Below, piece after piece: positions 29,210 to 53,255 of a stretch of DNA of 64,000 nucleotides. A program made the position numbers and the translations under genes. This DNA is from a virus (taxonomy: Duplodnaviria; Caudoviricetes): positions 2,758 to 66,757 of IMG/VR virus record IMGVR_UViG_3300042691_021640. The stretch is one strand, 5' to 3'. How positions within the stretch are numbered: position 1 is the stretch's first letter; the number at the start of each line of letters is the position of its first letter. Under the pieces are notes generated by a model, which saw only the letters and a program-made list of their open reading frames with translations, was not told the origin of the DNA and did not search any database.

Positions 29210-29238
29210 ATACTATGCGGCAACTGGCGACTTATCAA
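29210..29238 (-). promoter_or_regulatory. Sigma70-type promoter TTGATA-N17-TAGTAT, 6 nt upstream of the GTG start (leaderless-type)
   Basis: Exact 17-nt spacing read from the sequence; lies inside the 3' end of the upstream gene. Confidence 0.6.
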
Positions 29239-30385: not shown

Positions 30386-30386
30386 A

Positions 30387-36870: not shown

Positions 36871-37797
36871 TTATTTCCATCTGGGGCAACCTTCATACTT
36901 AAACTTTTTGATGACTTGAGTCTCGTCTTTCTTCGCTACTTTAGCTTCTTCTGCTGTAAAAAAGCTCTTTACGAAATTATTGTCCTTATCGTAAATAGAA
37001 TAGAACCACATCTCATTCTTGAAAGGGCAAACCCAAGTAGCTCCTGCTTGACATAACCACCTGCTTTTTACATTGTCTGCGGCAAAGTTTTGCTTTCCAT
37101 CTTGTTCGGAGAAATTAGTAACTTTGTCATAAACATGTTTAAGATAAACTTCAAATCCAGATAATTCATCATCAGTAAATTTTACCGGCTGAACAGGTTC
37201 TTTAGGAAATCTGAGAAATACAAATTCTACTTCTGGCTCGTATTCGGGCCAATAAATTTTAGAAGCAATAGAGTATAGCATGGCCTGTACATTGGCTGTC
37301 AACTCTTCTCCTTTGAATTTTGCCTTGCTGGACTTGTAATCTCTAATCTTGCTCTTCTTTTCTTTCTTATAAAGGATGGGAAGGTCAATGAATCCTCTAG
37401 CCTTGTAGCCATCTCTTTCGATTTTAAATTCGAACTCTGGGTCTTGAATGTTGCCGCCTTTAGGGAAGAAATCGCTCTTAAGACCGACAAGAATCATTTT
37501 ATTGATTAGAGCTATATCTTCAGGAGTATTGATTCCCTCTCTTGTGGCGTGTTTTATTACTAACTTGCCTACTGGAACGCAGGAAAGCGGATCGCCAGAG
37601 GCAATAATTTCCTTGTAAATCTTCTTGTGACGAGGATTAAGAAGCAATTCAAATACTAAGTGGCAAATTGTGCCGCGCTTGGCTCCTGAATTAGACTTCT
37701 CAGGAATGTTTAAATGATACTTACAATAATAAGACCATGAACAAGTTTCGAGAGCTTTGATTCTGGATGCAGATAGGTAGACTTCTTTCTTATCCAT
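36871..37797 (-). CDS. PD-(D/E)XK exonuclease, Cas4/RecB-like
   Basis: LSASRIKALETCSW.YY, GTICHLVFE, GFIDL, IRDYKSSK, QAMLY, C-terminal WLC...WVCPF. Confidence 0.85.
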   Translation of the reverse strand: MDKKEVYLSASRIKALETCSWSYYCKYHLNIPEKSNSGAKRGTICHLVFELLLNPRHKKIYKEIIASGDPLSCVPVGKLVIKHATREGINTPEDIALINKMILVGLKSDFFPKGGNIQDPEFEFKIERDGYKARGFIDLPILYKKEKKSKIRDYKSSKAKFKGEELTANVQAMLYSIASKIYWPEYEPEVEFVFLRFPKEPVQPVKFTDDELSGFEVYLKHVYDKVTNFSEQDGKQNFAADNVKSRWLCQAGATWVCPFKNEMWFYSIYDKDNNFVKSFFTAEEAKVAKKDETQVIKKFKYEGCPRWK

Positions 37798-38707
37798 TGA
37801 ATTCCTTCATATATAAGTCTATCTCATTTTTGCTCATTAATCCAAAATCTTTTTTGGGAGGCAGCTTTATCTTGACTTGATTCTCGTCGAAGAACATCAA
37901 GAGTTTAGATTTTGCTTTTTTCGCCGCTTCATTACCAGCAGAATTATTAAAAGAATCATTATTAAAAGCAATAACCACTTCTTGGACAGAGTTCTCTAAT
38001 AGAAATTTTGTGATCTTGGGAGAGATTGCCAATCCAAAAGTAATAATCACATTCTTGTAGCCAGCTTGCCATAAAGCCAACATATCTCCAATACTCTCAA
38101 TCAAGAAAACTCTTCCGCTTTCAGATATAGCATTTTTACTAAAAAAAGCTGGATAGACCCACTCCTTTTTAGTTCCAAGGTGTTTCCATTTAATGAAATC
38201 AGGTCTTTTTGAATCAACTAGTGACCTGCCGCTAAATCCTACAATTTTGCCAGATGGATTATAAATAGGGAACACATAACGATTAATCATGTTTCCTTTT
38301 TTAGCTATTCCACCTTTAAACTCTGCTACGATCTCTTCTTTGACTCCTCTATTAAGCCAGTATCCATGATTTTTTTCAAGGCTGACGAGCATCGATTCAT
38401 CGTAAACCTTTACTTGATTGATGGTATTTTTTTCTTGATTTACAATAATGCCCGTGAAGTTAAACTTCTCGGCAAGCATCTTGTCTGCATAATCTAGATC
38501 GTTTAGATTAAGTGTGATTTGAACTAATTCACTTAACTTACCCCCTCGACATAGTTTATAGTCATACCAATAACCAGTATTTTTATTGATTGCTAGAACT
38601 GTATCATTATCTGAACTCCTGTAGATTGGTCTAGTTCTGTACCAACCGCCGAAGTCTTTAAGATTTTGATAACCGATGTTTTGAAGTATTTCTTTTATAT
38701 CGCTCAT
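37790..38707 (-). CDS. dnaG: DnaG-like DNA primase (TOPRIM), with an atypical Cys-poor N-domain
   Basis: RYVFPIYNPSGKIVGFSGR, KWKH, VFLIESIGDMLAL...G.KNV...FG, AFNND...AG..AA; coupled to the helicase gene. Confidence 0.85.
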   Translation of the reverse strand: MSDIKEILQNIGYQNLKDFGGWYRTRPIYRSSDNDTVLAINKNTGYWYDYKLCRGGKLSELVQITLNLNDLDYADKMLAEKFNFTGIIVNQEKNTINQVKVYDESMLVSLEKNHGYWLNRGVKEEIVAEFKGGIAKKGNMINRYVFPIYNPSGKIVGFSGRSLVDSKRPDFIKWKHLGTKKEWVYPAFFSKNAISESGRVFLIESIGDMLALWQAGYKNVIITFGLAISPKITKFLLENSVQEVVIAFNNDSFNNSAGNEAAKKAKSKLLMFFDENQVKIKLPPKKDFGLMSKNEIDLYMKEFNG

Positions 38708-40188
38708 AACAAAGTGCCGTCATTGGGATTAGCATCATTCAACGAGAATGTTTGACGCTCTCTCTCAATGATATCGCCCAAGGAACCTCTCTCTTCTACA
38801 CTGAAATTGTTGATCTGAAAGTTGATAAAGTTCTGAACATATTTTTCATCACCATGTTCATTCCTTCTTCTAAGAAGATCTTGATGCCCAGCGGCATCTT
38901 TGCCTTGGAATCGACTCTTCAAAGTTATCAACTTATGAGTCCCAAAGTCTGGCGTATCACGCTCTATTTCGTCAAGAGTTTTTCTTCGGAAAATTCCTAC
39001 AAAGCTTGAGAACCATTGGAGTCGATCAGATAGAGCTATTGCCGAGCTATCATCAGTTACATCTCCAGCATTTCTATTAAAATTTTCACCAGATCTATTC
39101 ATTTGCATGGCAGTGAATAGCGGAGCATTAATTTCTTCTGAAATCTTTTTAAGTTTATCGATCTTTTCACCGATAGCTTGATGCTCTGCCCAGTTTTGGC
39201 CTACCTTTTCTCCGGTAAGTTTAACATAATCATAGCAAATAAGAGCAGGGTTTCCTCTTCCAACTTTGCTATAATACCATCTACGAATAAAAGAAACAAT
39301 CTCATCAATACCTTTATTACCAACACAATGATGAGTATAATTATATTTACTGAATTCTTTTAAGAAGCCCCTGACTTTATTGACCATTTCAGGATTTTTG
39401 CGCCAGTTTCCTGTGTCAATATACCAGAAAGGAACACCAGTCTTCGCTGCCGCAATACGAAGCTTAACATCTTGCGAGAACATTTCAGTATCAAGATAAA
39501 GAACACTAACTTTCTTGTTCTTTAAATAAGCTCCAAGAGACATCTCAACCAAGAACGAACTTTTGCCTTGGCCGGGACGACTAACGATTGCGTAGACATT
39601 GCCATTTCTCAAGCCGCCATAAAGCCTTGCGAATTCTGGATAATGCAAATCTATACCTGCTTCATCTTGAGGGTTGTTACCTTTTTCTTCTATGAACGCT
39701 TCTATGTCGTCAAAGATGTTTCTAATTTCTTCAGTGGCATCAAAAGAATTAATCTTTTCGCCGTATATAGAATCTACTTCAGCTATTATTTGATTAGCAT
39801 TTTTCTCAGGATTGGTGGAAACGGTTTCTATTATTCTTTGTGCCATGCCTTTTATGTCTCGGCGAATAGAAAACTGTTTTAACTCTTGAGCGTATTTAAT
39901 AGCAGAATCTTTATTTGAAACTGTTAAAGAAAGACAATCAATATAATCATATATATCAAGATCTTCTTGGAAAGAAATACCAAGATTCTGAATTTTCTGA
40001 GCCAGAATGACTTTATCCACTTTTTCTTTAGCATTACATATCTGGCGAATTATTGAGTAAATTGTACCATTTACATCATTTGTAAAATCAATCTCTGATA
40101 TAAAGTGATCTATATCATAAAATGATTCTGAATTTTTAATGAGCGAACCAAGCAAAGATTGCTCTACTTTAATAGAGGAAAGTTTCAT
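38704..40188 (-). CDS. dnaB: DnaB-like replicative helicase
   Basis: EQSLLGSLI N-domain, Walker A SRPGQGKS, LDTEM, CYDYVKL, AMQMNRSG, KSRFQG. Confidence 0.93.
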   Translation of the reverse strand: MKLSSIKVEQSLLGSLIKNSESFYDIDHFISEIDFTNDVNGTIYSIIRQICNAKEKVDKVILAQKIQNLGISFQEDLDIYDYIDCLSLTVSNKDSAIKYAQELKQFSIRRDIKGMAQRIIETVSTNPEKNANQIIAEVDSIYGEKINSFDATEEIRNIFDDIEAFIEEKGNNPQDEAGIDLHYPEFARLYGGLRNGNVYAIVSRPGQGKSSFLVEMSLGAYLKNKKVSVLYLDTEMFSQDVKLRIAAAKTGVPFWYIDTGNWRKNPEMVNKVRGFLKEFSKYNYTHHCVGNKGIDEIVSFIRRWYYSKVGRGNPALICYDYVKLTGEKVGQNWAEHQAIGEKIDKLKKISEEINAPLFTAMQMNRSGENFNRNAGDVTDDSSAIALSDRLQWFSSFVGIFRRKTLDEIERDTPDFGTHKLITLKSRFQGKDAAGHQDLLRRRNEHGDEKYVQNFINFQINNFSVEERGSLGDIIERERQTFSLNDANPNDGTLL

Positions 40189-40202
40189 TTAACTAAAAAG
40201 AG

Positions 40203-40484
40203 TCATTTACTAGCGGGGCCATCTTCATCTTCACCATCTTCATTTTCTTGATCAGAAGCAATAATATTATGAATTGTATTTTCTAAATTGATTTGTTCAA
40301 CAGCACTAAGCCAATTATTAATATAATAATGCATAGCCATTGCGTTCTGTGCATTATCGAATTTAGACCTTACTTCTGGCATTCCTTTTTTGTCAAAGGT
40401 AAATAATAAAAACCCTCCCTGCGAGCATTCATCTATTTGTGATAGAATGCTTTCTGGAAAATGGAATTCTTTATTTTTTGCCAC
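40203..40484 (-). CDS. Hypothetical protein (93 aa, acidic tail)
   Basis: Fills the operon gap; GTG start 8 nt downstream of a GTGTAA motif. Confidence 0.6.
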   Translation of the reverse strand: MAKNKEFHFPESILSQIDECSQGGFLLFTFDKKGMPEVRSKFDNAQNAMAMHYYINNWLSAVEQINLENTIHNIIASDQENEDGEDEDGPASK

Positions 40485-40492
40485 AGAGTATA

Positions 40493-40498
40493 TTACAC
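40493..40498 (-). promoter_or_regulatory. GTGTAA motif (also the terminal Val + stop of the upstream gene)
   Basis: GTGTAATATACTCT-GTG. Confidence 0.4.
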
Positions 40499-40912
40499 TA
40501 ACGATATCTTGAATGTATAATTTATATAATCGTAGGTCAATTTATTTAAATCAGAAGTCTCTAATTCTATTAACTGAAAGCCATTCTTTTCTAACCATAT
40601 AGACTTCTTGTAATCTCTTTTTATAGAGTTAAGATAATTCAATCTAGAATTATTGTGAAAGAATTTATTAAAAGAAGAGTGTTGATCTCCATTGACTTCT
40701 ATCGCTATTTTGCGAGATGCATTAATAAAGTCAACCTTCATTCTACTACCAAAAACCGGGAACTCTTCGTAACAAACGTGACTTTTCCAAAATGGTTTCA
40801 GGAATTGTTTAACCTGAAACTGAATCTTAGAACGAGACTGTTTATCCCAATCTATTAAAAATTGAGAAACATTTTTGTTAACTATTCTGCCAGTTACAGA
40901 ATATAACTTCAT
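40493..40912 (-). CDS. DUF559/Vsr-like endonuclease
   Basis: YEEFPV...KVDF....KIAIEVNG.QH...D..K..WL..NG..LIE. Confidence 0.75.
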   Translation of the reverse strand: MKLYSVTGRIVNKNVSQFLIDWDKQSRSKIQFQVKQFLKPFWKSHVCYEEFPVFGSRMKVDFINASRKIAIEVNGDQHSSFNKFFHNNSRLNYLNSIKRDYKKSIWLEKNGFQLIELETSDLNKLTYDYINYTFKISLV

Positions 40913-42060
40913 TTTGATTGAACAGCTTTCAGCTTACTAAAGAGATACTTGGTGGCTTGTTCGTTTTCTTCAAGCCATTTTCTGAAGTTTTCTCTTCCTT
41001 GGTGCTGTTTAGGGATTTCAATTTCAACAGTCTTAAGTTCTTCAATCAAAGAGTCATCAACGGTAATCCAAGCTCCCTTTGCAACAACAAGATCCCACAT
41101 GAGCAAGCAATCAAGAATCTCATATTCAACCCAGATGCCAGAAGGCTTCTTACCAAATTTAATAGGATACTGAATAATATTTTTGCGAGTTGCTTCGCTG
41201 GTAGACTTTTGAATCATTACCTTGGAATATTTTCCAATCGATTTGGTCTTGCCATCATTCATCTTTCCTGATGGGTTGTCAAGGATGTAGTCGCCCATTG
41301 CGGTTGGGCTGTACTCTAGGATAAAGTCGGCCCAATGCAAGAGCGCATTTCCGCCGCTGAACATCCCGCCTCTGGGAGCATTCTTAGCATAAGGATCGAT
41401 TTTAATTTCAGAAGTAATTTGACTAATAGCAATCATTAGATGTCCATGCTTGAACATTCCAATGCTTAGTGACTGCAATAGCTTCTTACTAATTACTTGA
41501 GTTCCAGCGACCTTGCTTGCGTCTGCTGGGCTTGTGTCTTTGTCTCTCTTTAAAATAAGACCATCCATTGAATCAATCACGAAGCAATAACGATGATCTT
41601 CTTGATTATTAAGGACAAGATCTTTAATAACATCAATTACTAAATCATATACATTTGATTCAAGAATGAAAACTGACCCATCAGTCCATTCTGAAGCGTC
41701 AGTAACGAACTTCATTCCGCAGCGTTCTCTATTTTCTTTAGAAAGACGGCCCTCTGCCAAGACCCAGACTACTCTGCTTTTTGGAATCTCAGAAAGGAAG
41801 TTTCTGCAAATCTCCAACGCTTGAGGAGTTTTGCCTTCATTGTTTGGTCCGCAAAGACGAATAAGAGAAGGGGTAATTCCGCCACCTACTGCTGCGTCTA
41901 AGAGTAGGCTTCCCGTAGAGATCTTCCAGCTTACTGCTTCTTCGAAATTAAAATGATCATCTTTATGATCTTTATTATTTAGAATAGCTTGGAGTCTGCT
42001 TGAGGCTCCAACTGCTGAGATTTTTTCTTCAGGCTGCTGTGTTTTCGGGGGTCGGGCCAT
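40909..42060 (-). CDS. recA: RecA-like recombinase
   Basis: ISTGSLLLDAAVGGG, Walker A GPNNEGKT, Walker B VIDS, ISQI, GGNALLHWAD. Confidence 0.9.
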   Translation of the reverse strand: MARPPKTQQPEEKISAVGASSRLQAILNNKDHKDDHFNFEEAVSWKISTGSLLLDAAVGGGITPSLIRLCGPNNEGKTPQALEICRNFLSEIPKSRVVWVLAEGRLSKENRERCGMKFVTDASEWTDGSVFILESNVYDLVIDVIKDLVLNNQEDHRYCFVIDSMDGLILKRDKDTSPADASKVAGTQVISKKLLQSLSIGMFKHGHLMIAISQITSEIKIDPYAKNAPRGGMFSGGNALLHWADFILEYSPTAMGDYILDNPSGKMNDGKTKSIGKYSKVMIQKSTSEATRKNIIQYPIKFGKKPSGIWVEYEILDCLLMWDLVVAKGAWITVDDSLIEELKTVEIEIPKQHQGRENFRKWLEENEQATKYLFSKLKAVQSK

Positions 42061-42421
42061 AATTAAGAAATTCTTTTAAAGTTCTGGGCTTCTTGACGAT
42101 TTGAATGTCTTCGCCCACTTTGCTGTTCTCTTCATTATAGCTGATTGCAGTCTTTGAGTCAAAGCTTTCTTTGAGCTTTTCTTTCGACCGCTTCAAGTCC
42201 TTTTGCTGAAGAAAAAGTGAGTATCTTTCTTTTAAAGTCTCTAGAATTTCTTTATTCTGTAAGAAAGCAAGATTAGAAACTAAAGGGTAAGGCTCTACCC
42301 ATTCCCAAAACCCATGTTCTGGAAATTTTTTTAAAAGCCTAGTGGCGACTTTCATGTCCCTAGGCCAATTTTGCTCTTCTTTTCTTACGAATTTTTCTAC
42401 AATGGTTTGTTGAATTGACAT
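42029..42421 (-). CDS. Hypothetical protein (130 aa)
   Basis: Operon-filling ORF with overlapping junctions on both sides. Confidence 0.6.
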   Translation of the reverse strand: MSIQQTIVEKFVRKEEQNWPRDMKVATRLLKKFPEHGFWEWVEPYPLVSNLAFLQNKEILETLKERYSLFLQQKDLKRSKEKLKESFDSKTAISYNEENSKVGEDIQIVKKPRTLKEFLNYGPTPENTAA

Positions 42422-43473
42422 TAAAATTGATTGAGATCAGATGCTACCATGTCTTTTACTAATTGATGAAAAGAGTACTTTGGATTCCAGTCTAATTCTT
42501 TGCGAGCCTTGGAAGAGTCTCCAAGAAGTAGTTCTACCTCTGCTGGACGGAAAAATTTTGGATCTATTCGAATCAAAACAGAAGACGCTGCATCGTTGCG
42601 TATGGCATATTCAGTTGATAAAGAATATTCTTCATTTGTTCCTTGCCCATGCCAAAAACCTTCTATACCAACTTCTTTAAATGCTAGTTCAATAAATTCT
42701 CTAATAGTATGAGTTTCGTTGCTTGATAAAACGTATTCATTTGGTTTTTCTTGATTGAGCATTTTCCAGACTCCATCTACGAAATCAATTGCGTGACTCC
42801 AGTCTCTTTTTGCGTCAACATTTCCCAAACAAATAGGATCAAAAGATTCTCTTCTTTTAATAGCCTTTATTATTCTGGCTACTCCTTTAGTAATTTTTCG
42901 AGTAACAAACTCTTCTCCTCTTCTTGGTGATTCATGATTAAAAAGATAACCTTGAATTGCAAAAAGATTATAAGATTCACGATATACTTTAACTAAATGC
43001 CTTGCCGCAGCTTTTGCCGCTCCATAGGGAGACCTTGGAGAAAGAGGGTGTTTCTCATCTTGAGGCGCATATTTTACATCTCCAAACTCTTCAGAGCTTC
43101 CAGCGTTATAAAATCGACAACTTGGAGAGTACTTACGCACGGCTTCAAGACATCTTAGCACACCCATAGCCCCAGCGTCAAATGTTTGTTCAGGAATTTG
43201 CCAGCTTGAACCAACAAAAGATTGCGCGGCAAAATTAATAAAGTAATCAGGTTTAATTTCTCTAACCGCATTGTCAATTGATTGAGAATCAGAAAGATCA
43301 AAGGTGACAAGCTTAAATCGATTATTGCAAAGATGCTTAGAAAAATTAGAATAGTTAGGCTTAGACAGTCTTCTTACTGCTCCAAAAATATTATAATTAG
43401 TCTTCTCAAGCAAGTAGTCAACCATGTAAGACCCATCTTGTCCAGTAATTCCTGTAATAATTACGTTTTTCAT
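42421..43473 (-). CDS. gmd: GDP-mannose 4,6-dehydratase
   Basis: ITGITGQDGSY, NFAAQSFVG.SW, YNAGSSEEFG, PRSPYGAAK, FNHESPRRGEEFVTRKIT, LGNVDAKRDW, FFRPAEVELLLGD. Confidence 0.96.
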   Translation of the reverse strand: MKNVIITGITGQDGSYMVDYLLEKTNYNIFGAVRRLSKPNYSNFSKHLCNNRFKLVTFDLSDSQSIDNAVREIKPDYFINFAAQSFVGSSWQIPEQTFDAGAMGVLRCLEAVRKYSPSCRFYNAGSSEEFGDVKYAPQDEKHPLSPRSPYGAAKAAARHLVKVYRESYNLFAIQGYLFNHESPRRGEEFVTRKITKGVARIIKAIKRRESFDPICLGNVDAKRDWSHAIDFVDGVWKMLNQEKPNEYVLSSNETHTIREFIELAFKEVGIEGFWHGQGTNEEYSLSTEYAIRNDAASSVLIRIDPKFFRPAEVELLLGDSSKARKELDWNPKYSFHQLVKDMVASDLNQF

Positions 43474-44234
43474 TATTCTGTATGTATTATAGGTTGTGGA
43501 ATATTATTTTTTATAAAAAAGCTTTTATCTATTTCAAGCTTGTTAGTTTCATAATTCCATTTGTAGGAGCAATGTCCAAAATGTTTATTTTGATATTCTA
43601 CTTTAAGTTTTCCATTTGAATGTAGCCAAGTCATGTGTCTAACATGAGCATAGTACTTTGGAATTTTTTGATTTACTAAATACTTATAGTTAAGCTCATC
43701 CCTTCCGTTGCTGTAAATAATATCATTATCCCAGTAAAATTTAACAAGTTTTAATCCTCTAGAATTAAAAAATATCCTTGGGGGGCAGAAATCATCTATC
43801 CATTGCTTGCCATCTAAGATGTAATTTTTAAAATTGATGCTGTACCATTGATTAAACTTATCGTTTGAAATATAAGAGATTATTGATTTTATCTCTTGTA
43901 TTGAATAATACTCATCGCTAAGATCTAATAACCAAACGCAATCAACATTGTCAGATAACAATGGAAATAAAGCTAAATTTCTAGCATCAGACTCTATAAG
44001 AGCTTCATTGGGAGCATTAAAATATTGAATTAAACCTTTGTCTTTTAGATTATTAAAGTAATTTATTGTTTTTGAATTATCAATGTTAATGTTTAAATCC
44101 TTGTACTCTTTAAACATGCACGAAACAAAAGAAAAGATAATCTCGCATTCTTTCGCCGCTTCAAACCAAGGACTTAACCTGTTTTCTAAGTCGTCAATGC
44201 AATCATACCCACATCCTAGGATACCTATCTTCAT
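43473..44234 (-). CDS. Putative GT-A fold glycosyltransferase
   Basis: ESDARNLAL...DCVWLLDLSDEYY (DxD-like), PPRIF, late His motif; resembles neighbouring GT2-like genes. Confidence 0.5.
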   Translation of the reverse strand: MKIGILGCGYDCIDDLENRLSPWFEAAKECEIIFSFVSCMFKEYKDLNINIDNSKTINYFNNLKDKGLIQYFNAPNEALIESDARNLALFPLLSDNVDCVWLLDLSDEYYSIQEIKSIISYISNDKFNQWYSINFKNYILDGKQWIDDFCPPRIFFNSRGLKLVKFYWDNDIIYSNGRDELNYKYLVNQKIPKYYAHVRHMTWLHSNGKLKVEYQNKHFGHCSYKWNYETNKLEIDKSFFIKNNIPQPIIHTE

Positions 44235-44239
44235 AAACT

Positions 44240-44920
44240 TTAAGCTTTAATTAAGAAATGATATGCTTTTTCTGCATCTTTCGCAGTAGATGGCTGATAT
44301 TTTCTACTATTTTCTGGTTCATTATTTAAATATGGGACACTGATCCATTTACCGCTTTCTTTAACTCTCCTATAAGCCGCTGCACAATAGCCATCTCCCT
44401 CGGTATAAGCAGTGTCATCAACACAACAAATGCCATTTTCTGATAGAACAGAATGAGCTAGTTCGATATCTTCAAAACACGCCCAGTCATAATGAAGGCC
44501 ATCAACGAAAACAAATGAAAATTTATGGTTTTCAATTAAATGATTTTTAAGCCTTGCGTCTTGAGACATCGCTCTATAATGAATAAAGTTTTGATACTTA
44601 CTCGTTTCATTGATAAAGAAATTAAAGACTTTTTGATCGCCTTCTTGCTGTCCATTGTAAGGGTCTACGCTTATAATTTTTTTACTATATATTGAAGCTA
44701 GTTCTAGGAGTGGGACTGTTGTGGTTCCGTATCTGGAGCCTATTTCTAATATATCGCCTTCTATATTTTCCATTGCTAACTTAGCTACATTTAGCATGGT
44801 GATTGTTTGATACTGAGAAGCAAGCCAGCTACTTGGGTTTCCTAGATCTTTAGAGATGCTCCAAGCATAAGTTAGATGAATTAGCTTTGCTATTTCTTTG
44901 GATATATTTTCTTTTGTCAT
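44240..44920 (-). CDS. Class I SAM-dependent methyltransferase (Methyltransf_24/TylF-like)
   Basis: GDILEIGSRYGTTT, ISVDPY, FVFVDGLH, ICCVDD. Confidence 0.82.
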   Translation of the reverse strand: MTKENISKEIAKLIHLTYAWSISKDLGNPSSWLASQYQTITMLNVAKLAMENIEGDILEIGSRYGTTTVPLLELASIYSKKIISVDPYNGQQEGDQKVFNFFINETSKYQNFIHYRAMSQDARLKNHLIENHKFSFVFVDGLHYDWACFEDIELAHSVLSENGICCVDDTAYTEGDGYCAAAYRRVKESGKWISVPYLNNEPENSRKYQPSTAKDAEKAYHFLIKA

Positions 44921-45636
44921 ATTCTGTTTATAAAATCGTTATATTGTTTTTCCCATCCTATATGCTCAACAATGCTATTGTCAGTGAAGCTAAAAATATT
45001 TTCTTGATTTAGTAAATATTTTGCGGCTATCTCATAAGCCATTTCTACATGAGGATGTATTCTTTCAAAGTTTTTCAATACAAAATTAGAGACATAAATC
45101 ATGTCTCTTGAGCGAAGCATTGCCGGATTAAAACTCCATTCTTTTTTTGCTAAATAGAAACCATCTCTTTTTTCTCCAGATAGTCTTTGAACAATGTCTG
45201 GTTGATCTACTCTAGAATATCTATGATAAATAATGCTTGAATTATTTTCTAAGATACGAATAGAATTATCAAGAAGAAAATCTAATTCATTTGTATGAAA
45301 CACCCAGTCATTTTCTAAATGAAACACAAATTGATGGCTTTTAACTAATTCATGGTTATAGCACTTCGCCATGTCTTTGATAAGTCCATGAGCATGACTT
45401 TCGTGATCATTCTTCCAATGTTCTGTAGTGGAAATAACATGAAACCCTAGAGACTTGAAAAAACTAATTTTTTCAGCAGCTATATTTTCATCTCCGGGGA
45501 TTATTTTTATATGCGCTAGTTTGTCTGCCTTGTGAAATAATTGAGATTTTTTAAAAGTATCTTTTAGACTTACTATGTCTACATCGTTTAGATTATAATG
45601 TTGTCTTGTGCTTGTTAGGAATACAATGCTGAACAT
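44917..45636 (-). CDS. Putative GT-A fold glycosyltransferase
   Basis: SIVFLTSTR, FVFHLENDWVF, WSFNPAMLR, VEHIG. Confidence 0.6.
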   Translation of the reverse strand: MFSIVFLTSTRQHYNLNDVDIVSLKDTFKKSQLFHKADKLAHIKIIPGDENIAAEKISFFKSLGFHVISTTEHWKNDHESHAHGLIKDMAKCYNHELVKSHQFVFHLENDWVFHTNELDFLLDNSIRILENNSSIIYHRYSRVDQPDIVQRLSGEKRDGFYLAKKEWSFNPAMLRSRDMIYVSNFVLKNFERIHPHVEMAYEIAAKYLLNQENIFSFTDNSIVEHIGWEKQYNDFINRI

Positions 45637-45640
45637 AAAT

Positions 45641-46315
45641 TTACATTTTCATTCCGCAGAACCATACGCATTCGTTAAAAATCTCTTTGTGAATATTAAT
45701 AATGCTGTTATCTGTACAAGCTTGCTTTATATCGTCTAATTTAGTTTCCCAAGAAAACCACCTTCCTTCTGATTTTGCTTGTTCAAATTGCTGTTCATTT
45801 TCAAAAAAATCATGAGACATAATGATATCTCCTCTCTTTAGAAATTTTGAGTAGATATTAAATTCTTTTACTTTATCTCCATTATCGCAAAGCAATAAAG
45901 TCCTGCCTTGTTTTTGAATTAAATTTCCAACTTCAGAAATGCACTTTCCATTTGTTAAAACGTCATATTGAAAAAATTTACCGCCGAGAGCTTCGATTAA
46001 ATTAATAGAAGTTTGATCTCTGACAGTATTATCAAAGGTGAAAAATTCTTTTGGAGTTTTATGGTGAGTATTGTTTTTATACAAGACAGGTTCGTTTGTA
46101 TTTTTGCAAGAAGCTGGCATCTTGCTTAAATAGCAGTATAATGCTAATAAAGTTGATAGTCCTCCATCATGGGTTCCAAGCTCAATAATTGTAGAAAAAT
46201 TATAATCTAACAAAAGTTGGTTGATTGCTCTTGGTGCATTTGGGTGTTGTTGCATGAAGCAACCAAAAAATGGCAAATGCATATTGCTAATACATTTTTT
46301 TTCTTGATTTGTCAT
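45641..46315 (-). CDS. CmcI-like SAM-dependent (sugar O-)methyltransferase
   Basis: MQQHP, IIELGTHDGGLS, LLLCDNGDKVKEF, LKRGDIIMSHD. Confidence 0.7.
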   Translation of the reverse strand: MTNQEKKCISNMHLPFFGCFMQQHPNAPRAINQLLLDYNFSTIIELGTHDGGLSTLLALYCYLSKMPASCKNTNEPVLYKNNTHHKTPKEFFTFDNTVRDQTSINLIEALGGKFFQYDVLTNGKCISEVGNLIQKQGRTLLLCDNGDKVKEFNIYSKFLKRGDIIMSHDFFENEQQFEQAKSEGRWFSWETKLDDIKQACTDNSIINIHKEIFNECVWFCGMKM

Positions 46316-47073
46316 ATGTCTAAATGATGCTTTTTGATTTCTATTTTAGAAAAATCAATTTTATTATCTATCTCTTTTCCTGCGCGATTCGACCAAACGG
46401 GTTGCCAGAAATCATTTTGTTTAATCCTTTGATCTTTATCTATAGCCCAATAATGGAACACATAGGGCGTTTGTCCTTCTCTAAGATCTTCAATTAAATT
46501 ATTAAACATCAAAGTCTTAACAAGATTTCCAGAGACATCTATCAATTCACAAGTGTCGCTTTTGTCTGTATCTATCTTTCCATCTTGTTTTTTAGCAAAA
46601 TTTACTATTCCACGATATAAGCCATCTTTGTGCATGTACCATTTGTAGCCTATGTCTTTATAGTGGTAAATGTCACCGCATAGATTAATGCTTGGAATTA
46701 AATAAGCAGAAGCTTCTGATTGAGATAATAAGTAATTAGCAACCCTGCGCCATAGATTTTTTTGATAAAGAGGAAACCTTTCGTCTATATCGCAAGAAAT
46801 TTTTATATCTCCAGATGTATGTTGCAGCGCAAAGTTTTTAATTTTACCATCAAATGCCAAATCAGAATAATCAAAAGCGCATTGACAAAGGATGACGTTA
46901 GAAATGCCTTTTTCTTCTAGAAATTTACTGACAGTTTCAAACGTTTCATCTTCTGATTTATTAATAGCAATAACGACCTCATCCATAAACTGTGAATAGT
47001 TTAGGATAGACTTTTGCCAGTCGAATCCCATCTTAATGAGATTAAACGCAGAGGTATAAGAAGAAAATTTCAT
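46312..47073 (-). CDS. GT2-like glycosyltransferase
   Basis: DEVVIAIN.S.D.T, KNFALQHTSGD..ISCDIDER, VFHY. Confidence 0.78.
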   Translation of the reverse strand: MKFSSYTSAFNLIKMGFDWQKSILNYSQFMDEVVIAINKSEDETFETVSKFLEEKGISNVILCQCAFDYSDLAFDGKIKNFALQHTSGDIKISCDIDERFPLYQKNLWRRVANYLLSQSEASAYLIPSINLCGDIYHYKDIGYKWYMHKDGLYRGIVNFAKKQDGKIDTDKSDTCELIDVSGNLVKTLMFNNLIEDLREGQTPYVFHYWAIDKDQRIKQNDFWQPVWSNRAGKEIDNKIDFSKIEIKKHHLDI

Positions 47074-47708
47074 TTAACCACAATAGGGAGATTCCCTAGT
47101 TTATTATTTATTCTTTTGCAAAGCAATTGCTTTGGAGAATGATTATCATAAAATCTTAATGGTAAAAAAGATTTAGAAAACTCTTGCTGATAGACTTTTT
47201 CTACATCTCTGCCCCAATCGTCTAAGAGCATGTAATCGATTTCAAGATCTAAAGTTAATTGAATATCATTTCTAACACAATCTTCCCAATGGTCTCCATC
47301 AATAAAAATAAAATCAAATTTTTGATCTTTAATTTTATCTTTTACTTTTCTGCTGTCTTCATTTATAAAAGTAAACCTATTAGGAAATGATTTTTTTAAA
47401 TGGTCAACAGCTTTAAACGTCCAAGATTTGTCTGGATATGGAGTTCCATGAATTTGACAATGAATCAAATCGCTTCTATGGTAAACTGGATCTACAGATG
47501 TTACGTTTGCATTTGTATGCAGTAGCCAATTTAGAGCAGACCCTCCTTCAAAAAATCCTATTTCAAGAATATTTTTAGGGTTGCAAAATTGAAGAATATC
47601 TCTAGTTACAAGAGCAAGCTCAGAATAGTTTTGCATTGGTTGAATCTGCTTGCCTTCGACAATATAATTAAAAAATTCTTCTGGCTTAACAGCTTTTAGT
47701 TTGCTCAT
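47070..47708 (-). CDS. Class I SAM-dependent methyltransferase (Methyltransf_24-like)
   Basis: NILEIGFFEGGSA, VTSVDP, FDFIFIDGDH, MLLDD. Confidence 0.85.
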   Translation of the reverse strand: MSKLKAVKPEEFFNYIVEGKQIQPMQNYSELALVTRDILQFCNPKNILEIGFFEGGSALNWLLHTNANVTSVDPVYHRSDLIHCQIHGTPYPDKSWTFKAVDHLKKSFPNRFTFINEDSRKVKDKIKDQKFDFIFIDGDHWEDCVRNDIQLTLDLEIDYMLLDDWGRDVEKVYQQEFSKSFLPLRFYDNHSPKQLLCKRINNKLGNLPIVVK

Positions 47709-48547
47709 AGATAAAATCCTTTGTTTGCTTTTATCGATTTTAGATCTTCATTTAAAATTTTCTTTCTATAAAAATCTTTTAAAATGCCCTCTGAATTAAT
47801 AAACTCTTTAAACTTTTGGTCTGTCGATACAGACTGTTTAGCGTAATTAATAAAAGAATCGGCGGTGAATTCTAATCCTATAGAATAACAATACATTCTA
47901 AATTGTTTTCTATTCTCCTCGGCTCTTCGGAAGCCTTCTTGATCATTCTCTCTTCCTAGGAGCAGATGATTACTTCTTCCGTATACATAATAGTATTTAA
48001 AAAAATGATCAATATAATAAGACTCATCTCTTTCTGGATCGTCTTCTCCATCTCTTAGTCTCCAAGTATGTTCTTTTTTATTTTCGTCAAAGAATTGAGA
48101 TAGGTCAACAGCTTGGCTTCTGGCTCCAATTAGTCCCCAGTGCGGAGAACCATGAAAATACATGTCGTCATAATATTCAAAAGCGAAGCCTTTGCCATAA
48201 TTATATATAGACTTGATATTTGATTGTTTAGCTTTTTGAATTAGATCTTTGATTCCTGAAACCCATTCAGGATTAAACCTCTCTCTAGAGTCTCTAAGAA
48301 CGAGCCAATCGCCAATCTTAAGCGGTCCTTGGCGCAAAAATTCATTCATTTGAAAGTCATGATCGTTAGTCCATTTTCGATAGACGACTTGACCACAGCC
48401 CTTTCTTTCCTCTAGAAGTTCTTTAGTTCCGTCTGTAGAACCGCCATCGACATAAATCAAACCGTCAAAAGCTTTGTAACAGTCTCTTGTTAAATCATCT
48501 ATATTTTTCTTTTGATTTTGTGTGATTCCACAAAGATAGACTTTCAT
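47705..48547 (-). CDS. GT2-like glycosyltransferase
   Basis: LIYVDGGSTDGTKELL, WTNDHDFQMN, WLVLRDSRER. Confidence 0.78.
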   Translation of the reverse strand: MKVYLCGITQNQKKNIDDLTRDCYKAFDGLIYVDGGSTDGTKELLEERKGCGQVVYRKWTNDHDFQMNEFLRQGPLKIGDWLVLRDSRERFNPEWVSGIKDLIQKAKQSNIKSIYNYGKGFAFEYYDDMYFHGSPHWGLIGARSQAVDLSQFFDENKKEHTWRLRDGEDDPERDESYYIDHFFKYYYVYGRSNHLLLGRENDQEGFRRAEENRKQFRMYCYSIGLEFTADSFINYAKQSVSTDQKFKEFINSEGILKDFYRKKILNEDLKSIKANKGFYL

Positions 48548-49344
48548 TCACTCATTATATCTATCCCTAAAGAATCTTTCCAACATAAAAAAGAATTATT
48601 TTTATGACCTTCTGGAATTGTGCCATTAATCCAAGTGCTGTTTAAAATAGAATTCCATTCTTGATCTGTTAGTTTTACGTTTGGAAAATCTATTCTTTTC
48701 TTTATAGGGATATCAATAAACACTTCTTTCGTGTCCGTGTATTGTGTTAATCTACCGCCGCAAGGGTATTCGCGTATTGAAATTTTACCATTATCAGCAA
48801 ATAGTAATTTAGTAACAAAGAATTTTAAATTATTTTCTTTGTAGAAATTCTGAACTGCTTCTTCTGTCCATAACTCATTTGCAAAAGGACCGGGGCCACC
48901 TTTTGAATTTGGAATAGAGTTATAAAACTTTTTGCTAGTTAAATGAGCCCTTTCTGAATATCGCCCATTACCTTGGTTGCCAGCAAGATCAACATGACCA
49001 GCAATTTTATTTTGTTCTAATGCTTCTTTATAGCTATTAAGTTCTTCTATAGTGAAGTCTCTAACCATAAACTGATCGCATTGTACATAAACTACATAAT
49101 CATTATCAAGATTAAATTCATTAAAAAGTTCTCTTGTCCCTAACCCGCAGCCAGAATTTTTTTTCCTTAAGATGAGTTTGTCAATTAATCCTTGATTGAA
49201 AAAAGAAAAAATGGCAGCGTGGTCTTCGCCGCCGTTATTTAGCAATACTACTTCGTGATTGAATTTAGTAAATTGCTTGATTGATTTTAAACAAAGCTCA
49301 GTTTCTTTGGGTCGATTATAATTTAATACTAAAAAGGAAAGCAT
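48544..49344 (-). CDS. GT2-like glycosyltransferase
   Basis: SFLVLNYNRPKETELCLKSI, VVLLNNG, NSGCG.G, VVYVQCD. Confidence 0.8.
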   Translation of the reverse strand: MLSFLVLNYNRPKETELCLKSIKQFTKFNHEVVLLNNGGEDHAAIFSFFNQGLIDKLILRKKNSGCGLGTRELFNEFNLDNDYVVYVQCDQFMVRDFTIEELNSYKEALEQNKIAGHVDLAGNQGNGRYSERAHLTSKKFYNSIPNSKGGPGPFANELWTEEAVQNFYKENNLKFFVTKLLFADNGKISIREYPCGGRLTQYTDTKEVFIDIPIKKRIDFPNVKLTDQEWNSILNSTWINGTIPEGHKNNSFLCWKDSLGIDIMSE

Positions 49345-49628
49345 TATTTACTTCTTTCAATGATATTATCAAGTTTTGCTTCTATTTTATCAAATCTAGC
49401 GTTAATATGCTCTGAGAATTTATTAAGATCTTCTTTATTGACGTATTCTTTAGGAAGAGAGATTTCAACACCATAGATTTTTCGTTCAAGATCTGAAATT
49501 TTATCTTGTTGTTTATCTATTGCATCAAAGTTTCTTTTAAATACCCAAGCAGCTAAGAAACTAAGAATAGATAATGCTATATTAAATAAAGTTTGCCAAT
49601 CCATAGTTGCTCCTGTTGTTGGATTCAT
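49344..49628 (-). CDS. Small protein with an N-terminal transmembrane helix and coiled coil (holin/XhlA-like candidate)
   Basis: WQTLFNIALSILSFLAAWVF followed by a heptad-rich region; the real start may be the second Met. Confidence 0.45.
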   Translation of the reverse strand: MNPTTGATMDWQTLFNIALSILSFLAAWVFKRNFDAIDKQQDKISDLERKIYGVEISLPKEYVNKEDLNKFSEHINARFDKIEAKLDNIIERSK

Positions 49629-49644: not shown

Positions 49645-49676
49645 AAAAAAGCGACTCTCTTGTAACAGAAAGTCGC
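49645..49676 (-). terminator. Intrinsic terminator
   Basis: Minus strand GCGACTTTCT-GTTACA-AGAGAGTCGC-TTTTTT: 10-bp stem (one G.U pair) plus U6. Confidence 0.75.
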
Positions 49677-49682
49677 TATAGT

Positions 49683-49760
49683 TCAGCGCACTACGTTTTT
49701 TCCGCTGTTTTGCTTTTGTTTTGCCTCTATCTTTTTGGAAAAATCGACCTTAATGTGCAT
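49683..49760 (-). CDS. Candidate 25-aa peptide MHIKVDFSKKIEAKQKQNSGKNVVR (not in the ORF track)
   Basis: ATG 8 nt after a GTGTAG motif variant; stop 6 nt before the terminator stem. Confidence 0.3.
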   Translation of the reverse strand: MHIKVDFSKKIEAKQKQNSGKNVVR

Positions 49761-49811
49761 ACAATATTCTACACCTTAGAAATACTGTATGAACAAAAAA
49801 GGTTGAAAATT

Positions 49812-51779
49812 TTAAAGACTAACTGGCTCACATTTTCCACCAGCGCAAGCAGCTTCTTGAGTGTGACTTGTTTCGTCTTCGTCCTCAATAAGCTTGGTGA
49901 AATCAACGCAAGACCACTCTTCCTGAAGCTTCTTGAACTTGGCTTCATCTTCAGGCGTTACAATTGCTTCCATTGGAGCTTGCTGATAAATCTTATCTCC
50001 AGAATAAGGCAATAAAGAAACAGCAGTAAAATACTCTTGGTTCTTGTAAAGGTACTCTGTAACGGTCTTCCATTCGTCATCTTTAACGATAACTGTGCAG
50101 CTAACTGAATGGTTTAAGGGTTTCTTATTGGCTTCGGTTGTCCCGCAGTTTACCCAATTAGTTTGAGTCAATTTAATAAGTTCCAAATGCTCAACAGCAT
50201 TAAGTTCAGATTTAATCTTGACATTCTTACCTACTTCAATAGGGAATGAGATAACATCGTCTACCTTGTTTGCGCTCCAAACGCTCTCTTCGCAAGCGTG
50301 TTCGTTAAACATCTTAAAGAACTTATAGACGTTATCTTCTTTATTGACCTGAATTCGGCGGAAGTACTTGCGAGCATGATGGGGGTGAATTCCAGAAGCA
50401 GCAGACAATACAATTGAATTAGTACCTTCTGGCTTGATGCAGGTCACTCTAGAAGCCTGATTGATGCCAATCTTCTTAGCCCATTCGATATTAGTATTAA
50501 CTGATACCTTGGCGGCTTCTCTTTGATACTCTGGATTAAAAAGGACTTCTGGATTGTCCATCATTCCCGTAATAGAAACGCCAAGCAAAGCCTCTTGCTC
50601 TGTTAGCTCCTCTGAAGTATGACCAAGATAAGGGAATGTGGTATAGGCAGCTTGCAGCGTACCGATCAAAGAAGCAGCCCAAGAAGCATTTTTAAAATCT
50701 TCTAGAGACTCAACTTTAGCTCCATTAATAGAAGTAAGGTTACAGAATTGGAATCCGCAACGCCCATCTTTAGTAATAGGAATAAAAGAAATCTCAAAGC
50801 AAGGATTCAAAAGCTGATTCTCATCAACAACGTACAAGAATCCCGGCTCGCCAAACTCTTTGGTCTTATTAATAAGGGTTTCAAACTCTTCATAAGAAGT
50901 TTTGCCGCGAATAATAATGGCAGAGTTATTTGATCTAGCTCTCTGAGGATTGTCAAGGAACCAATTTCCAGTCTTGGCGTTCATCATGTCCTTGTCTTGA
51001 GCGTCAAAGATAACGCTGCAAGCAGAACGGCGAATACCACCTGACAACACTGCATCGGCGCAATGCATCAAAATATCATAAGCATTAACGGTCTTAAGGC
51101 GAGTTTGATTGCTGTCTTCAATGATGGTGTCAAGCAAGAGCTTAACCTTGAAATGGCAGTTCTTAAGCCCCTTGTAACCGGGAGCTTTACCGCCGCCGGT
51201 CTTGAGTTTCGCACCTTTTGGACGAATTTTGCTATAATCAAATACAATCTTACGCCCAGAATAAGCAGTGTTCTTGAAATAGCAATTTAATAGGGCTTCA
51301 ATAGAGTCGCCCCAACCTTCAATATTATCAGTTACAGTATAAGTGATTACCGCTCCCGTCTTATCTTTAGCGTTAACGAGATCAGGGAGTCGATTGAGGA
51401 ACTTATCAGTGATACCAAATCCAACACCAGTACCACAAAGAAGAGTATAAAAGGACTCAGCAAAAGAACGAATAGAATCAATATGACGTACAGCGCAGTT
51501 AAAGATTCTTCCATTATGAGCTTCAACAGCCTTACCGCCGAATTGCATGCTCCGCATTGAAGGAGTAACTTTCCTTTCTCTAACCAAGTCGAAAGCTTTT
51601 GAGATTTCATATTTGTCTTCTTTTGGTAGGTGCTTGAATTTCTTCAAGTGCATGGTCTCGACTCTTGTAACAGTCTCGTCCCATGTTTCTCTACGCTTCT
51701 TCTTTTCATCATATTTTGCGTATTTTGTTACGAACGTAAAGTTCGCCATTTCATCTAGGAAGTTAATAGCCTTGCTCAT
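49812..51779 (-). CDS. nrdJ: Class II (adenosylcobalamin-dependent) ribonucleotide reductase
   Basis: RETWDETVTRV, PSMRSM, FNCA, GGIRRSA, NPCFEI, CNL, TCIKPEGT, C-terminal ACAGGKCE. Confidence 0.9.
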   Translation of the reverse strand: MSKAINFLDEMANFTFVTKYAKYDEKKKRRETWDETVTRVETMHLKKFKHLPKEDKYEISKAFDLVRERKVTPSMRSMQFGGKAVEAHNGRIFNCAVRHIDSIRSFAESFYTLLCGTGVGFGITDKFLNRLPDLVNAKDKTGAVITYTVTDNIEGWGDSIEALLNCYFKNTAYSGRKIVFDYSKIRPKGAKLKTGGGKAPGYKGLKNCHFKVKLLLDTIIEDSNQTRLKTVNAYDILMHCADAVLSGGIRRSACSVIFDAQDKDMMNAKTGNWFLDNPQRARSNNSAIIIRGKTSYEEFETLINKTKEFGEPGFLYVVDENQLLNPCFEISFIPITKDGRCGFQFCNLTSINGAKVESLEDFKNASWAASLIGTLQAAYTTFPYLGHTSEELTEQEALLGVSITGMMDNPEVLFNPEYQREAAKVSVNTNIEWAKKIGINQASRVTCIKPEGTNSIVLSAASGIHPHHARKYFRRIQVNKEDNVYKFFKMFNEHACEESVWSANKVDDVISFPIEVGKNVKIKSELNAVEHLELIKLTQTNWVNCGTTEANKKPLNHSVSCTVIVKDDEWKTVTEYLYKNQEYFTAVSLLPYSGDKIYQQAPMEAIVTPEDEAKFKKLQEEWSCVDFTKLIEDEDETSHTQEAACAGGKCEPVSL

Positions 51780-52175: not shown

Positions 52176-53255
52176 TTAGAAAAGAGAGAGAATCTGCTCT
52201 ACGGTCTTTTTGACGGTGAACTGGTCTTGCAACTTCAAACCTTCTTGGTTTATTTTGCTTTGCTTAACTCTGGCGATAGCTTTTTCGCAACCTTCAATAA
52301 AAGCTTCTTCAGACCATTCAAAAATATTTCCTTGATTAAATTCTTGCCCTTGATGAAAGAACATTCCATCATAAGCAGGAATTTTGCTTGAAGGATTTAT
52401 TAGAACTGAATTTTTATCATTAGCCCAAGCAGTGTAAGCGTGGGCGTTAACAATTACAGAATGCTTGCCAATTGCGACAGACTGAAATTCTGGCAATGCC
52501 CAGCCTTCGCCGCCAGAAGCACCAAGGATAACGTCTGCTGAATTTAGAAATTCATTATAAAGATTAACCTGAGCCATGTGACCAAAGAAACTAACATTGA
52601 AGAATTTCTTTCCTTCAACTGCCATGTTAATTAGTTTGGTGTTATCTTCTTGGGATAGAAAGTTATTATAAAGAGCGCACTGCAAAGAGTAACTGCTATT
52701 ATTAGCATACTTATTGATCCATGCGCGAATAGCTTTTACATGGTGCTTGCGCTTCTCAAACTTGCCACAGAGATTAAACGTAATTCTTCCATCATTAAAA
52801 TACGTCTTGTTTGTAGCTTTAAAATTCTTTGCATCAAAGAACAGGGGTAAATAAGAAGTATTACCTACCCCATGTTCATTGAATACCTTCACAGAATAAG
52901 GAGAGGAAACTAATACCTTGTCATTATTTTTTAAGATATTAATTTCAGTCTGAGTGAGGGCATCAAGTTCGTGAAAAGTAAGAAGGAACTGCCTGTCACT
53001 ATAAGACTCAAGGGAACCATTAATATGCCATAGTTTAAAAACTGGATCTTTTCTTGAATGATATCGAAGACCTTTCTTCAAACAAGAATTAAACCAATTC
53101 TTAAAATCTTCCGAAACCTCCTCCTGCCCAAAGTCAGGATTGCCAATCATAAACAATGATGGCTCCAGCTTCAAGGAATAAATCTCCTTGAGAAGCTGAA
53201 TTGAGACCTGACCAAAGCTGGTCGTGTTTACTGGAAGATGTAAGGCAAATTTCAT
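52176..53255 (-). CDS. GT-B (GT4-like) glycosyltransferase
   Basis: TSFGQVS..L, FNLCGKFEKRKH, LNSADVILGASGGEGWALPEFQSVAIGK. Confidence 0.82.
   Translation of the reverse strand: MKFALHLPVNTTSFGQVSIQLLKEIYSLKLEPSLFMIGNPDFGQEEVSEDFKNWFNSCLKKGLRYHSRKDPVFKLWHINGSLESYSDRQFLLTFHELDALTQTEINILKNNDKVLVSSPYSVKVFNEHGVGNTSYLPLFFDAKNFKATNKTYFNDGRITFNLCGKFEKRKHHVKAIRAWINKYANNSSYSLQCALYNNFLSQEDNTKLINMAVEGKKFFNVSFFGHMAQVNLYNEFLNSADVILGASGGEGWALPEFQSVAIGKHSVIVNAHAYTAWANDKNSVLINPSSKIPAYDGMFFHQGQEFNQGNIFEWSEEAFIEGCEKAIARVKQSKINQEGLKLQDQFTVKKTVEQILSLF

Follow-up and report, generated by a model that had tools for sequence, protein, structure and literature searches.

A candidate glycan-synthesis island of fixed position and variable content in a clade of uncultured freshwater phages

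The window analysed here is a 64,000-nt stretch (positions 2,758-66,757) of the IMG/VR record IMGVR_UViG_3300042691_021640, which comes from an uncultured freshwater phage of the Caudoviricetes. At positions 42421-49344, on the minus strand, lies a nine-gene operon that encodes a GDP-mannose 4,6-dehydratase (Gmd), five glycosyltransferases (GTs) of the GT-A/GT2 type and three class I S-adenosylmethionine (SAM) methyltransferases (MTs). Read in the direction of transcription, the genes are GT2, GT2, MT, GT2, CmcI-like MT, GT-A, MT, GT-A and Gmd, here termed g9 to g1. Adjoining genes overlap by 1 or 4 nt or are separated by gaps of 4-5 nt, and the coupled run extends from the small upstream gene p94 (49344-49628) through Gmd to p130 and UvsX. 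A first-pass annotation, made from the sequence alone, had described nine tightly coupled open reading frames (ORFs) in this order and on this strand, and the ORF coordinates and junctions bear it out in full; each of its nine gene labels finds backing in Pfam matches, in searches at family level or in an AlphaFold model, g9 being borderline. The AT-richness that it had judged by eye is also real: GC fractions are 0.29-0.35 in g2-g9, compared with 0.408 for UvsX and 0.409 for the ribonucleotide reductase (RNR), although they lie only some 3 points under the window mean of ~0.35. Among the island proteins of the window, a membrane helix is predicted for p94 but for none of the nine enzymes.

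The terminal gene, g1 (42421-43473), can be assigned as Gmd from its match to PF16363 (7e-115, covering 1-332 of 332) and to 11 solved GMDs (1e-87 to 8e-79). Against NCBIfam TIGR01472 it scores 367.9 bits, which is under the trusted cut-off of 415, in an end-to-end alignment (2-341 of 342) with no rival model close. Its translation carries the cofactor motif GITGQDGSY (GxxGxxG) and the catalytic motifs GSSEEFG (S/T..E) and SPYGAAKAA (YxxxK), which we take to be the counterparts of those of E. coli Gmd. After Gmd the window island has no 4-reductase or aminotransferase, whereas relatives carry DegT, short-chain dehydrogenase/reductase (SDR) or C-methyltransferase genes in this place; we infer that reduction of the 4-keto sugar in the window variant would fall to Gmd, to an enzyme of the host or to the product of a gene outside the window. 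Self-reduction by a GMD is rare but has been shown for PBCV-1 (PMC9614988). The nearest cellular Gmds, 54-61% identical, belong mostly to Flavobacterium or Flavobacteriaceae metagenome-assembled genomes (MAGs), and this kinship, together with a PurM-like gene, is a weak pointer to a host among the Flavobacteriales. The latter gene (57227-57886, plus strand) encodes 219 aa with 32-36% identity to proteins of Flavobacterium phages, pelagiphages and many cyanophages, variously annotated as PurM-like, ferredoxin or hypothetical.

Two of the MTs are recognised directly by Pfam. With a cut-off of 26.3 bits for PF13578 (Methyltransf_24), g3 (44240-44920) scores 46.4 bits (7.8e-12) and g7 (47070-47708) 43.4 bits (6.7e-11); g7, a predicted SAM-dependent O-methyltransferase, also matches PF01596 with 25.8 bits (cut-off 22). 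Single-sequence PDB searches with g3 and g7 were uninformative. The third, g5 (45641-46315), has no Pfam match of its own; 8 of its 23 homologues match PF04989 (RMNT_CmcI; best 2.3e-5), two are named 'cephalosporin hydroxylase' by the Joint Genome Institute (JGI) and its motif I reads IELGTHDGG, while the lone contact of the g5 profile in the PDB, an O-methyltransferase at E 0.14, is not usable. These matches favour the first description of the three genes as MTs: they are class I SAM enzymes, one of which, g5, would belong to the CmcI/rhamnosyl-O-methyltransferase family.

The GTs are more divergent. For g8 (47705-48547) the GT2 assignment comes from PF00535 (23.9 bits, cut-off 23.3) and phrog_13126 (5.6e-13), and VDGGSTD and D86..E89 are invariant in its family. 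At 23.0 bits, g9 (48544-49344) falls just under the same PF00535 cut-off, and its motifs are degenerate, with NNGGxD for DDGSxD and CDQ (C-D90-Q) for DxD, so that we list it as a divergent, borderline GT2-like protein. The family profile of g6 (46312-47073) matches TarS at 1.8e-5, PF13704 is matched by 15 of 31 family members, and D95-x-D97-E98 is invariant in the family; g6 alone reaches 18.1 bits against a cut-off of 27.5. Neither g2 (43473-44234) nor g4 (44917-45636) has a Pfam match of its own. The first-pass annotation had made a GT-A fold the test of its 'GT' ORFs, and AlphaFold2 models of both (pLDDT 97.7 and 94, respectively) show this fold. The g2 model matches ThuS (Z 15.0), SunS (14.1) and TarS (13.7), with ThuS, SunS, RmlT, TarS and SpsA together spanning 13-15, and its family has a nearly invariant D104 and invariant D107 and E108. 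This family is large and includes homologues fused to GT2, GT9, GT1-like, C-methyltransferase or FkbM domains. The best matches of the g4 model are SpsA, TarP and a3GalT; E108-x-D110 and H225 are invariant, the family was found in viral contigs only and its profile retrieved nothing usable from PDB sequences. Though both are GT-A, the g2 and g4 families showed no relation to each other in hhalign. No homologue of g2, g6 or g8 was found among 50,697 isolated phage genomes, and with g2, g4 and g6 the island brings uncharacterised GT-A families together in a small space.

The nearest kin of the window are other IMG/VR contigs, the longest of which, IMGVR_UViG_3300044568_001868, measures 148.6 kb. 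No isolated phage is close to it, and the cassette DNA yields only short Gmd matches among isolated phages. We compared the window with 13 related contigs (n=14 with the window), whose RNR and UvsX are 89-98% identical at the amino acid level and for which RNR- and UvsX-anchored loci were stitched, every overlap being exact. The interval from the end of RNR to the start of UvsX is at its shortest in the window, where it measures 7,755 nt, and spans 10.6-17.5 kb in the other contigs. Some 50 protein families in about eight arrangements make up the 14 islands, and only p94, a g8-like GT2 and Gmd, the latter always as the last gene, occur in all 14; nine more UvsX-anchored loci likewise end Gmd-p130-UvsX. 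The window island is of the type found in contigs c42881 and c13005, the nearest type, but where these have a GT9-like gene, a DegT gene, a GT-B gene and a 112-aa gene, it has g3 alone, a gene with no homologue in any of the 13 related contigs. The pool of genes in the relatives comprises a DegT aminotransferase (1e-65), a sugar C-methyltransferase, two SDR epimerase/reductases and GT9-like, GT-B, GT17, DUF5672, FkbM and Methyltransf_24 MT proteins, as well as a 660-aa fusion protein that is GT2-like in its N-terminal and Methyltransf_24 in its C-terminal part (F33, L001:12673-14655). The DegT enzyme would turn the Gmd product into perosamine-type sugars. The comparison of cassette content that had been suggested at the outset thus reveals swappable genes that are glycan enzymes only in the proteins scanned, namely 30 island proteins searched against Pfam, or about half of the ~50 families.

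The backbone of the window shares ~86% DNA identity with these relatives (dS, the synonymous divergence, 0.5-1.1), and RNR, UvsX, DnaB and the GT at 52176 are 89-98% identical at the amino acid level with dN/dS of 0.02-0.06. Shared island genes are 71-91% identical, and their dN/dS of 0.03-0.10 marks them as functional and under purifying selection. Relative to c13005, dS of the island genes mostly exceeds that of the flanks, ~1.2 to saturation against 0.5-1.3. Furthermore, the likeness of alleles is decoupled from that of the backbone: contig c13132, whose backbone diverges most, shows the greatest similarity in its island genes, and the alleles of Gmd fall into two classes (64-66% and 86-89%). 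This pattern of sequence divergence indicates that island segments are exchanged among co-circulating phages.

To look beyond the close relatives, a g6-family profile was used to find 71 distant loci in other phage contigs, whose g6-like proteins are 33-51% identical. Of these loci, 55 contain Gmd, 48 UvsX, 38 a sigma factor and 41 the 52176-type GT. In all 47 that have both Gmd and UvsX, the two genes share a strand and Gmd lies upstream, at a distance of no more than 1.5 kb. Because this position is kept in distant loci, the locus is judged to be old and fixed in place while its content turns over. The 52176-type gene (GT359, 52176-53255, minus strand; phrog_2170/4356) is a candidate 'core' GT of the clade, with 93-96% amino acid identity in relatives. 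Family searches recognise two further conserved, non-variable GT genes at 29213-32294 (minus strand), a GT9 C-lobe gene and a GT4+GT9 N-lobe gene. These genes account for three of the four additional GTs listed in the first-pass annotation, at 29213 (GT9), 30387 and 52176; the fourth, at 58509-59174 (plus strand), lost its GT label, as it has no Pfam match and its homologues in the S-TIM5 and DSL-LC02 cyanophages (43-45% identical) are annotated as hypothetical. The constant position of Gmd relative to UvsX and the 93-96% conservation of the core GTs suggest that the glycan is an integral trait of the clade, not an add-on, and on these comparisons we regard the locus as a putative island for glycan synthesis that keeps its position and varies its content across a clade of uncultured freshwater phages.

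The GT-A folds, the SAM MTs and the cassettes of glycan enzymes in relatives support the interpretation of the locus as a glycan assembly line, as was first put forward; the strict alternation of 'paired' GTs and MTs proposed with it is an inference from gene order. We hold with moderate confidence that the operon would build, in the cytoplasm, a methylated 6-deoxyhexose glycan that is specific to the strain and is carried, most likely, on virion structural proteins, and we regard the virion-protein acceptor as the least certain step of this proposal. First, Gmd would convert host GDP-mannose into GDP-4-keto-6-deoxymannose. In the window variant this keto sugar would become a rhamnose- or fucose-type sugar, either through Gmd, for which the PBCV-1 GMD is a precedent, or through a host reductase, and relatives would make perosamine-type or C-methyl sugars instead. 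The five GTs would add sugars stepwise in the cytoplasm, onto a core made by the conserved GTs encoded elsewhere in the genome, and the three MTs would O-methylate particular residues. Finally, the virion of each strain would receive a glycan coat of its own.

This proposal has a parallel in the capsid N-glycan machinery of PBCV-1 (A064R, A061L, the GMD A118R and the GMER A295L), in which soluble GT-A enzymes and SAM O-methyltransferases act on deoxyhexoses and a viral GMD uses host GDP-mannose. There, assembly and methylation of the capsid glycan are the work of A064R (GT-GT-MT) and A061L, and the GMD has two functions; in the Mimiviridae clade-specific gene clusters are devoted to the fibril glycans (PMC9614988). 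GT+MT fusions are also seen in relatives of the phage, as F33, the architecture of which recalls that of A064R, and as the top BFVD match of g4. In contrast to PBCV-1, a eukaryotic giant virus, the phage has no GMER in its island and concentrates its genes in one operon at a fixed locus, the content of which is swapped among strains. Among phages, the capsid and tail tube of mycobacteriophages are glycosylated, and phage GTs have been proposed to decorate structural proteins assembled in the cytoplasm (Freeman et al. 2023, as cited in PMC12619734). We count clade-wide conservation, the several core GTs elsewhere and the cytoplasmic nature of the enzymes in favour of a virion acceptor here. The mycobacteriophages of Freeman et al. 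2023 reportedly have a few GTs, and we know of no report of sugar-nucleotide synthesis, a series of MTs or a hypervariable locus in connection with mycobacteriophage virion glycosylation.

Several points weigh against a glycan on the virion. The phage is uncultured. Its island stands in the replication module, away from the structural genes, and in T4 it is the beta-glucosyltransferase gene that adjoins uvsX. A Ser/Thr/Pro-rich (mucin-like) candidate acceptor was looked for in the window and none was found, and the Gmd product has no evident next enzyme because the island has no 4-reductase. Typical O-antigen GTs are also soluble or peripheral, so enzymes free of membrane spans are compatible with host-aided, lipid-linked assembly, and the searches that speak against DNA as the target cover about two thirds of the genome with two or three tblastn queries each. 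The first-pass annotation had named virion proteins, the host surface and hypermodified DNA as acceptors between which the sequence alone cannot decide; we agree.

Remodelling of the host envelope is possible, though we consider it rather doubtful. In that case the soluble GTs and MTs would act on undecaprenyl-linked O-antigen, capsule or protein-O-glycan intermediates of the host, using its initiating transferase, flippase and ligase, and the altered cell surface would bring about superinfection exclusion or keep progeny off debris. The set of Gmd, GTs and MTs resembles ABC-transporter-type D-rhamnan loci, which contain gmd, rmd, GTs and MTs, and the Flavobacteriales, to which most of the MAGs with the nearest cellular Gmds belong, make methylated O-glycans. 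As in bacterial O-antigen and capsule loci, variable low-GC content with enzymes for nucleoside diphosphate (NDP)-sugar tailoring, GTs and MTs lies between conserved flanks, and alleles are exchanged independently of the backbone. However, the island is virus-borne, and no initiating phosphoglycosyl transferase, flippase, polymerase (Wzx/Wzy), ABC transporter (Wzm/Wzt) or ligase was found in the 30 island proteins scanned. Multi-pass membrane proteins are absent from every island; among the ~50 families, helices are predicted in p94 and one GT-B variant only. Moreover, a deep phage clade has kept the locus, together with Gmd and several of the GTs, under strong purifying selection, which would be unusual for an accessory exclusion function. 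GT-rich hypervariable regions of pelagimyophages and cyanomyophages have been read in terms of the host envelope (PMC7029224). This 'host recognition cluster' is similar to our island in that it is aquatic, non-syntenic between conserved modules and composed of lipopolysaccharide (LPS)-type GTs with sugar-nucleotide genes, the function being putative in both; it differs in its location in the structural module, where it is mixed with tail fibres and auxiliary metabolic genes, whereas the island described here occupies the replication module as a single coupled, MT-rich operon of glycan enzymes only with a Gmd-UvsX anchor.

The position of the island raises the question of DNA hypermodification, in which one of the bases in the phage DNA would carry a methylated deoxyhexose oligosaccharide as a guard against restriction. 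The order island-p130-UvsX-two small genes-DnaB-primase (window 37790-49628) mirrors 42-beta-gt-(segA)-uvsX-40-41...61 of T4, and the island therefore fills the slot of the T4 DNA-modification genes, within a replication and nucleotide-metabolism module. As in the known systems (T4 gp42 with alpha- or beta-GT; MT+TET+GT; RB69 and DLP3), there are GTs beside uvsX and an activated sugar of the phage's own, and the modification would differ among kin; restriction arms races would likewise drive variability. LPS- and teichoic-acid-related phage GTs put mono- to trisaccharides on 5-hydroxymethylcytosine (10.1101/2023.12.21.572611), RB69 and DLP3 synthesise an NDP-sugar themselves and poly-arabinosylate 5-hydroxycytosine (PMC13326640), and T in YerA41 DNA bears an apparent oligosaccharide of ~1 kDa in a phage with several GT genes (PMC9023294). 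The window also encodes a dCMP deaminase, a dUTPase and possibly a deoxynucleoside monophosphate (dNMP) kinase. The last of these is a 210-aa product (54235-54867, minus strand) with a weak match to phosphomevalonate kinase (NMP-kinase fold) and no isolated-phage homologue; if it could act as a dNMP kinase, as the match would allow, it would bear on the question of DNA modification.

Even so, a DNA target appears unlikely. Known routes need a ThyA-family hydroxymethylase or hydroxylase, or a C5-methyltransferase with TET (10.1101/2023.12.21.572611, PMC13326640). The first-pass annotation had proposed a search for a dNMP hydroxymethylase gene. We used T4 gp42, E. coli ThyA, Dcm, T4 gp56 and beta-GT as tblastn queries (E <= 0.01; two or three per search, of limited reach) against the window, ~100 kb of the 148.6 kb of the longest relative and the other fetched loci, 3.5 Mb in total including 1.18 Mb of distant-locus flanks. 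No relative of ThyA/gp42, Dcm, gp56 or beta-GT was detected in this DNA, the search including no profiles for TET/JBP or radical-SAM proteins, and the absence of ThyA-, Dcm- and T4 GT-type genes from the DNA surveyed lowers the probability of this option. In the case of the T4 beta-GT this is weak evidence, since other GT folds can act on DNA. A weak match to T4 gp42 in an ORF of relatives (L108:12198-13073) was dismissed after comparison with solved structures. The Pfam-scanned island families contain no DNA-modification domain, and relatives hold up to ~8 GTs and 7 MTs, far beyond known DNA glycans and many more than in the systems named above. A variant in which the base-activating step is not ThyA-, Dcm- or T4-like, and the cassette swaps reflect an arms race with restriction that senses modified DNA, strikes us as a little more improbable again.

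We think it quite improbable that the island makes some other soluble product, such as a free or secreted glycoconjugate (glycolipid, glycosylated peptide or small molecule) or a decorated non-structural protein of phage or host. The structural likeness of g2 to the peptide S-glycosyltransferases ThuS and SunS and a weak SunS-family match of g8 would be in keeping with it. However, we no longer take the top matches of g2 as a sign of a peptide acceptor, given that teichoic-acid and polysaccharide GT2 enzymes tie with them within ~1 Z, and no peptide precursor, exporter or lipid-synthesis gene was found in the island proteins scanned.

Virus-made glycans are well documented in eukaryotic giant viruses, and to our knowledge experimental evidence for phage-made glycans exists only for a few mycobacteriophages. 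Here, an abundant uncultured freshwater clade appears to keep a dedicated glycan locus at one address and to vary its content in the manner of bacterial O-antigen loci. Returning to the glycan coat that we favour, a coated virion would imply phage 'serotypes' under frequency-dependent selection, with consequences for adsorption, grazing, particle stability and phage engineering; with DNA or the host surface as the target instead, the island would hold equally rich and unexplored chemistries of counter-defence or exclusion. GT-rich hypervariable regions in aquatic myophages (PMC7029224) and virus-encoded glycan synthesis were already known. What we believe to be new is an operon composed purely of putative glycan enzymes, its richness in MTs, the clade-wide Gmd-UvsX anchor, the O-antigen-like turnover of cassettes and the GT-A families without an isolated-phage homologue (g2, g6 and g8 having been searched).

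The island is bordered by small genes and conserved anchors, all on the minus strand. On the right, the conserved gene p130 (42029-42421) separates Gmd from the UvsX-like recombinase (40909-42060), the conserved right anchor, which was identified by family searches and in relatives; on the left, p94 (phrog_462), a small protein with an N-terminal membrane helix, is the first island gene in all 14 contigs, and a class II RNR (49812-51779, family searches) forms the conserved left flank in close relatives. Both p94 and p130 evolve far faster (68-93% amino acid identity, dN/dS up to 0.27; 68-78% and ~0.2-0.27 for p130) than the adjoining UvsX and RNR, in keeping with boundaries of recombination or with genes that co-adapt with the island. 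The spacer between RNR and p94 (49650-49774) holds a conserved GTGTAGAATA..TATG motif followed by the 25-codon remnant of a small gene of family F39 (49683-49760, minus strand), recognised by spacer alignment and 97 aa long in 3300013005_000025. A strong hairpin and T-run at 49650-49677 was dropped as a candidate terminator or attenuator, as it falls within this remnant, in sequence that relatives still use for coding. The putative promoter-like motif GTGTAGAATATTGTATG (49758-49774, minus strand) is conserved ahead of the island in all eight relatives compared, regardless of island content, and resembles the GTGTAA-W motif that precedes both tail operons and RNR. GTGTAA/GTGTAG fails as a marker of late versus replication genes, since it also precedes RNR.

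Elsewhere, the window encodes a tape measure protein, a lambda-J-like protein, a split family-C polymerase, DnaB, primase, UvsX, the class II RNR, a sigma factor, the dCMP deaminase and the dUTPase. In relatives, ~4-7 kb past the right end of the window (L097:14418-16923), we observed another gene with weak likeness to dCMP deaminases, an HNH endonuclease gene and a RuvB-like AAA+ gene with a weak sigma-54-activator match. Finally, the RNR match extends over 2.8-2.9 kb, as opposed to 1.97 kb, in three loci (L009, L011 and L013), with the query aligning from about locus position 11200; the extra length of ~0.9 kb points to an insertion close to the 5' part of the gene, be it an intein, an intron or a homing endonuclease.

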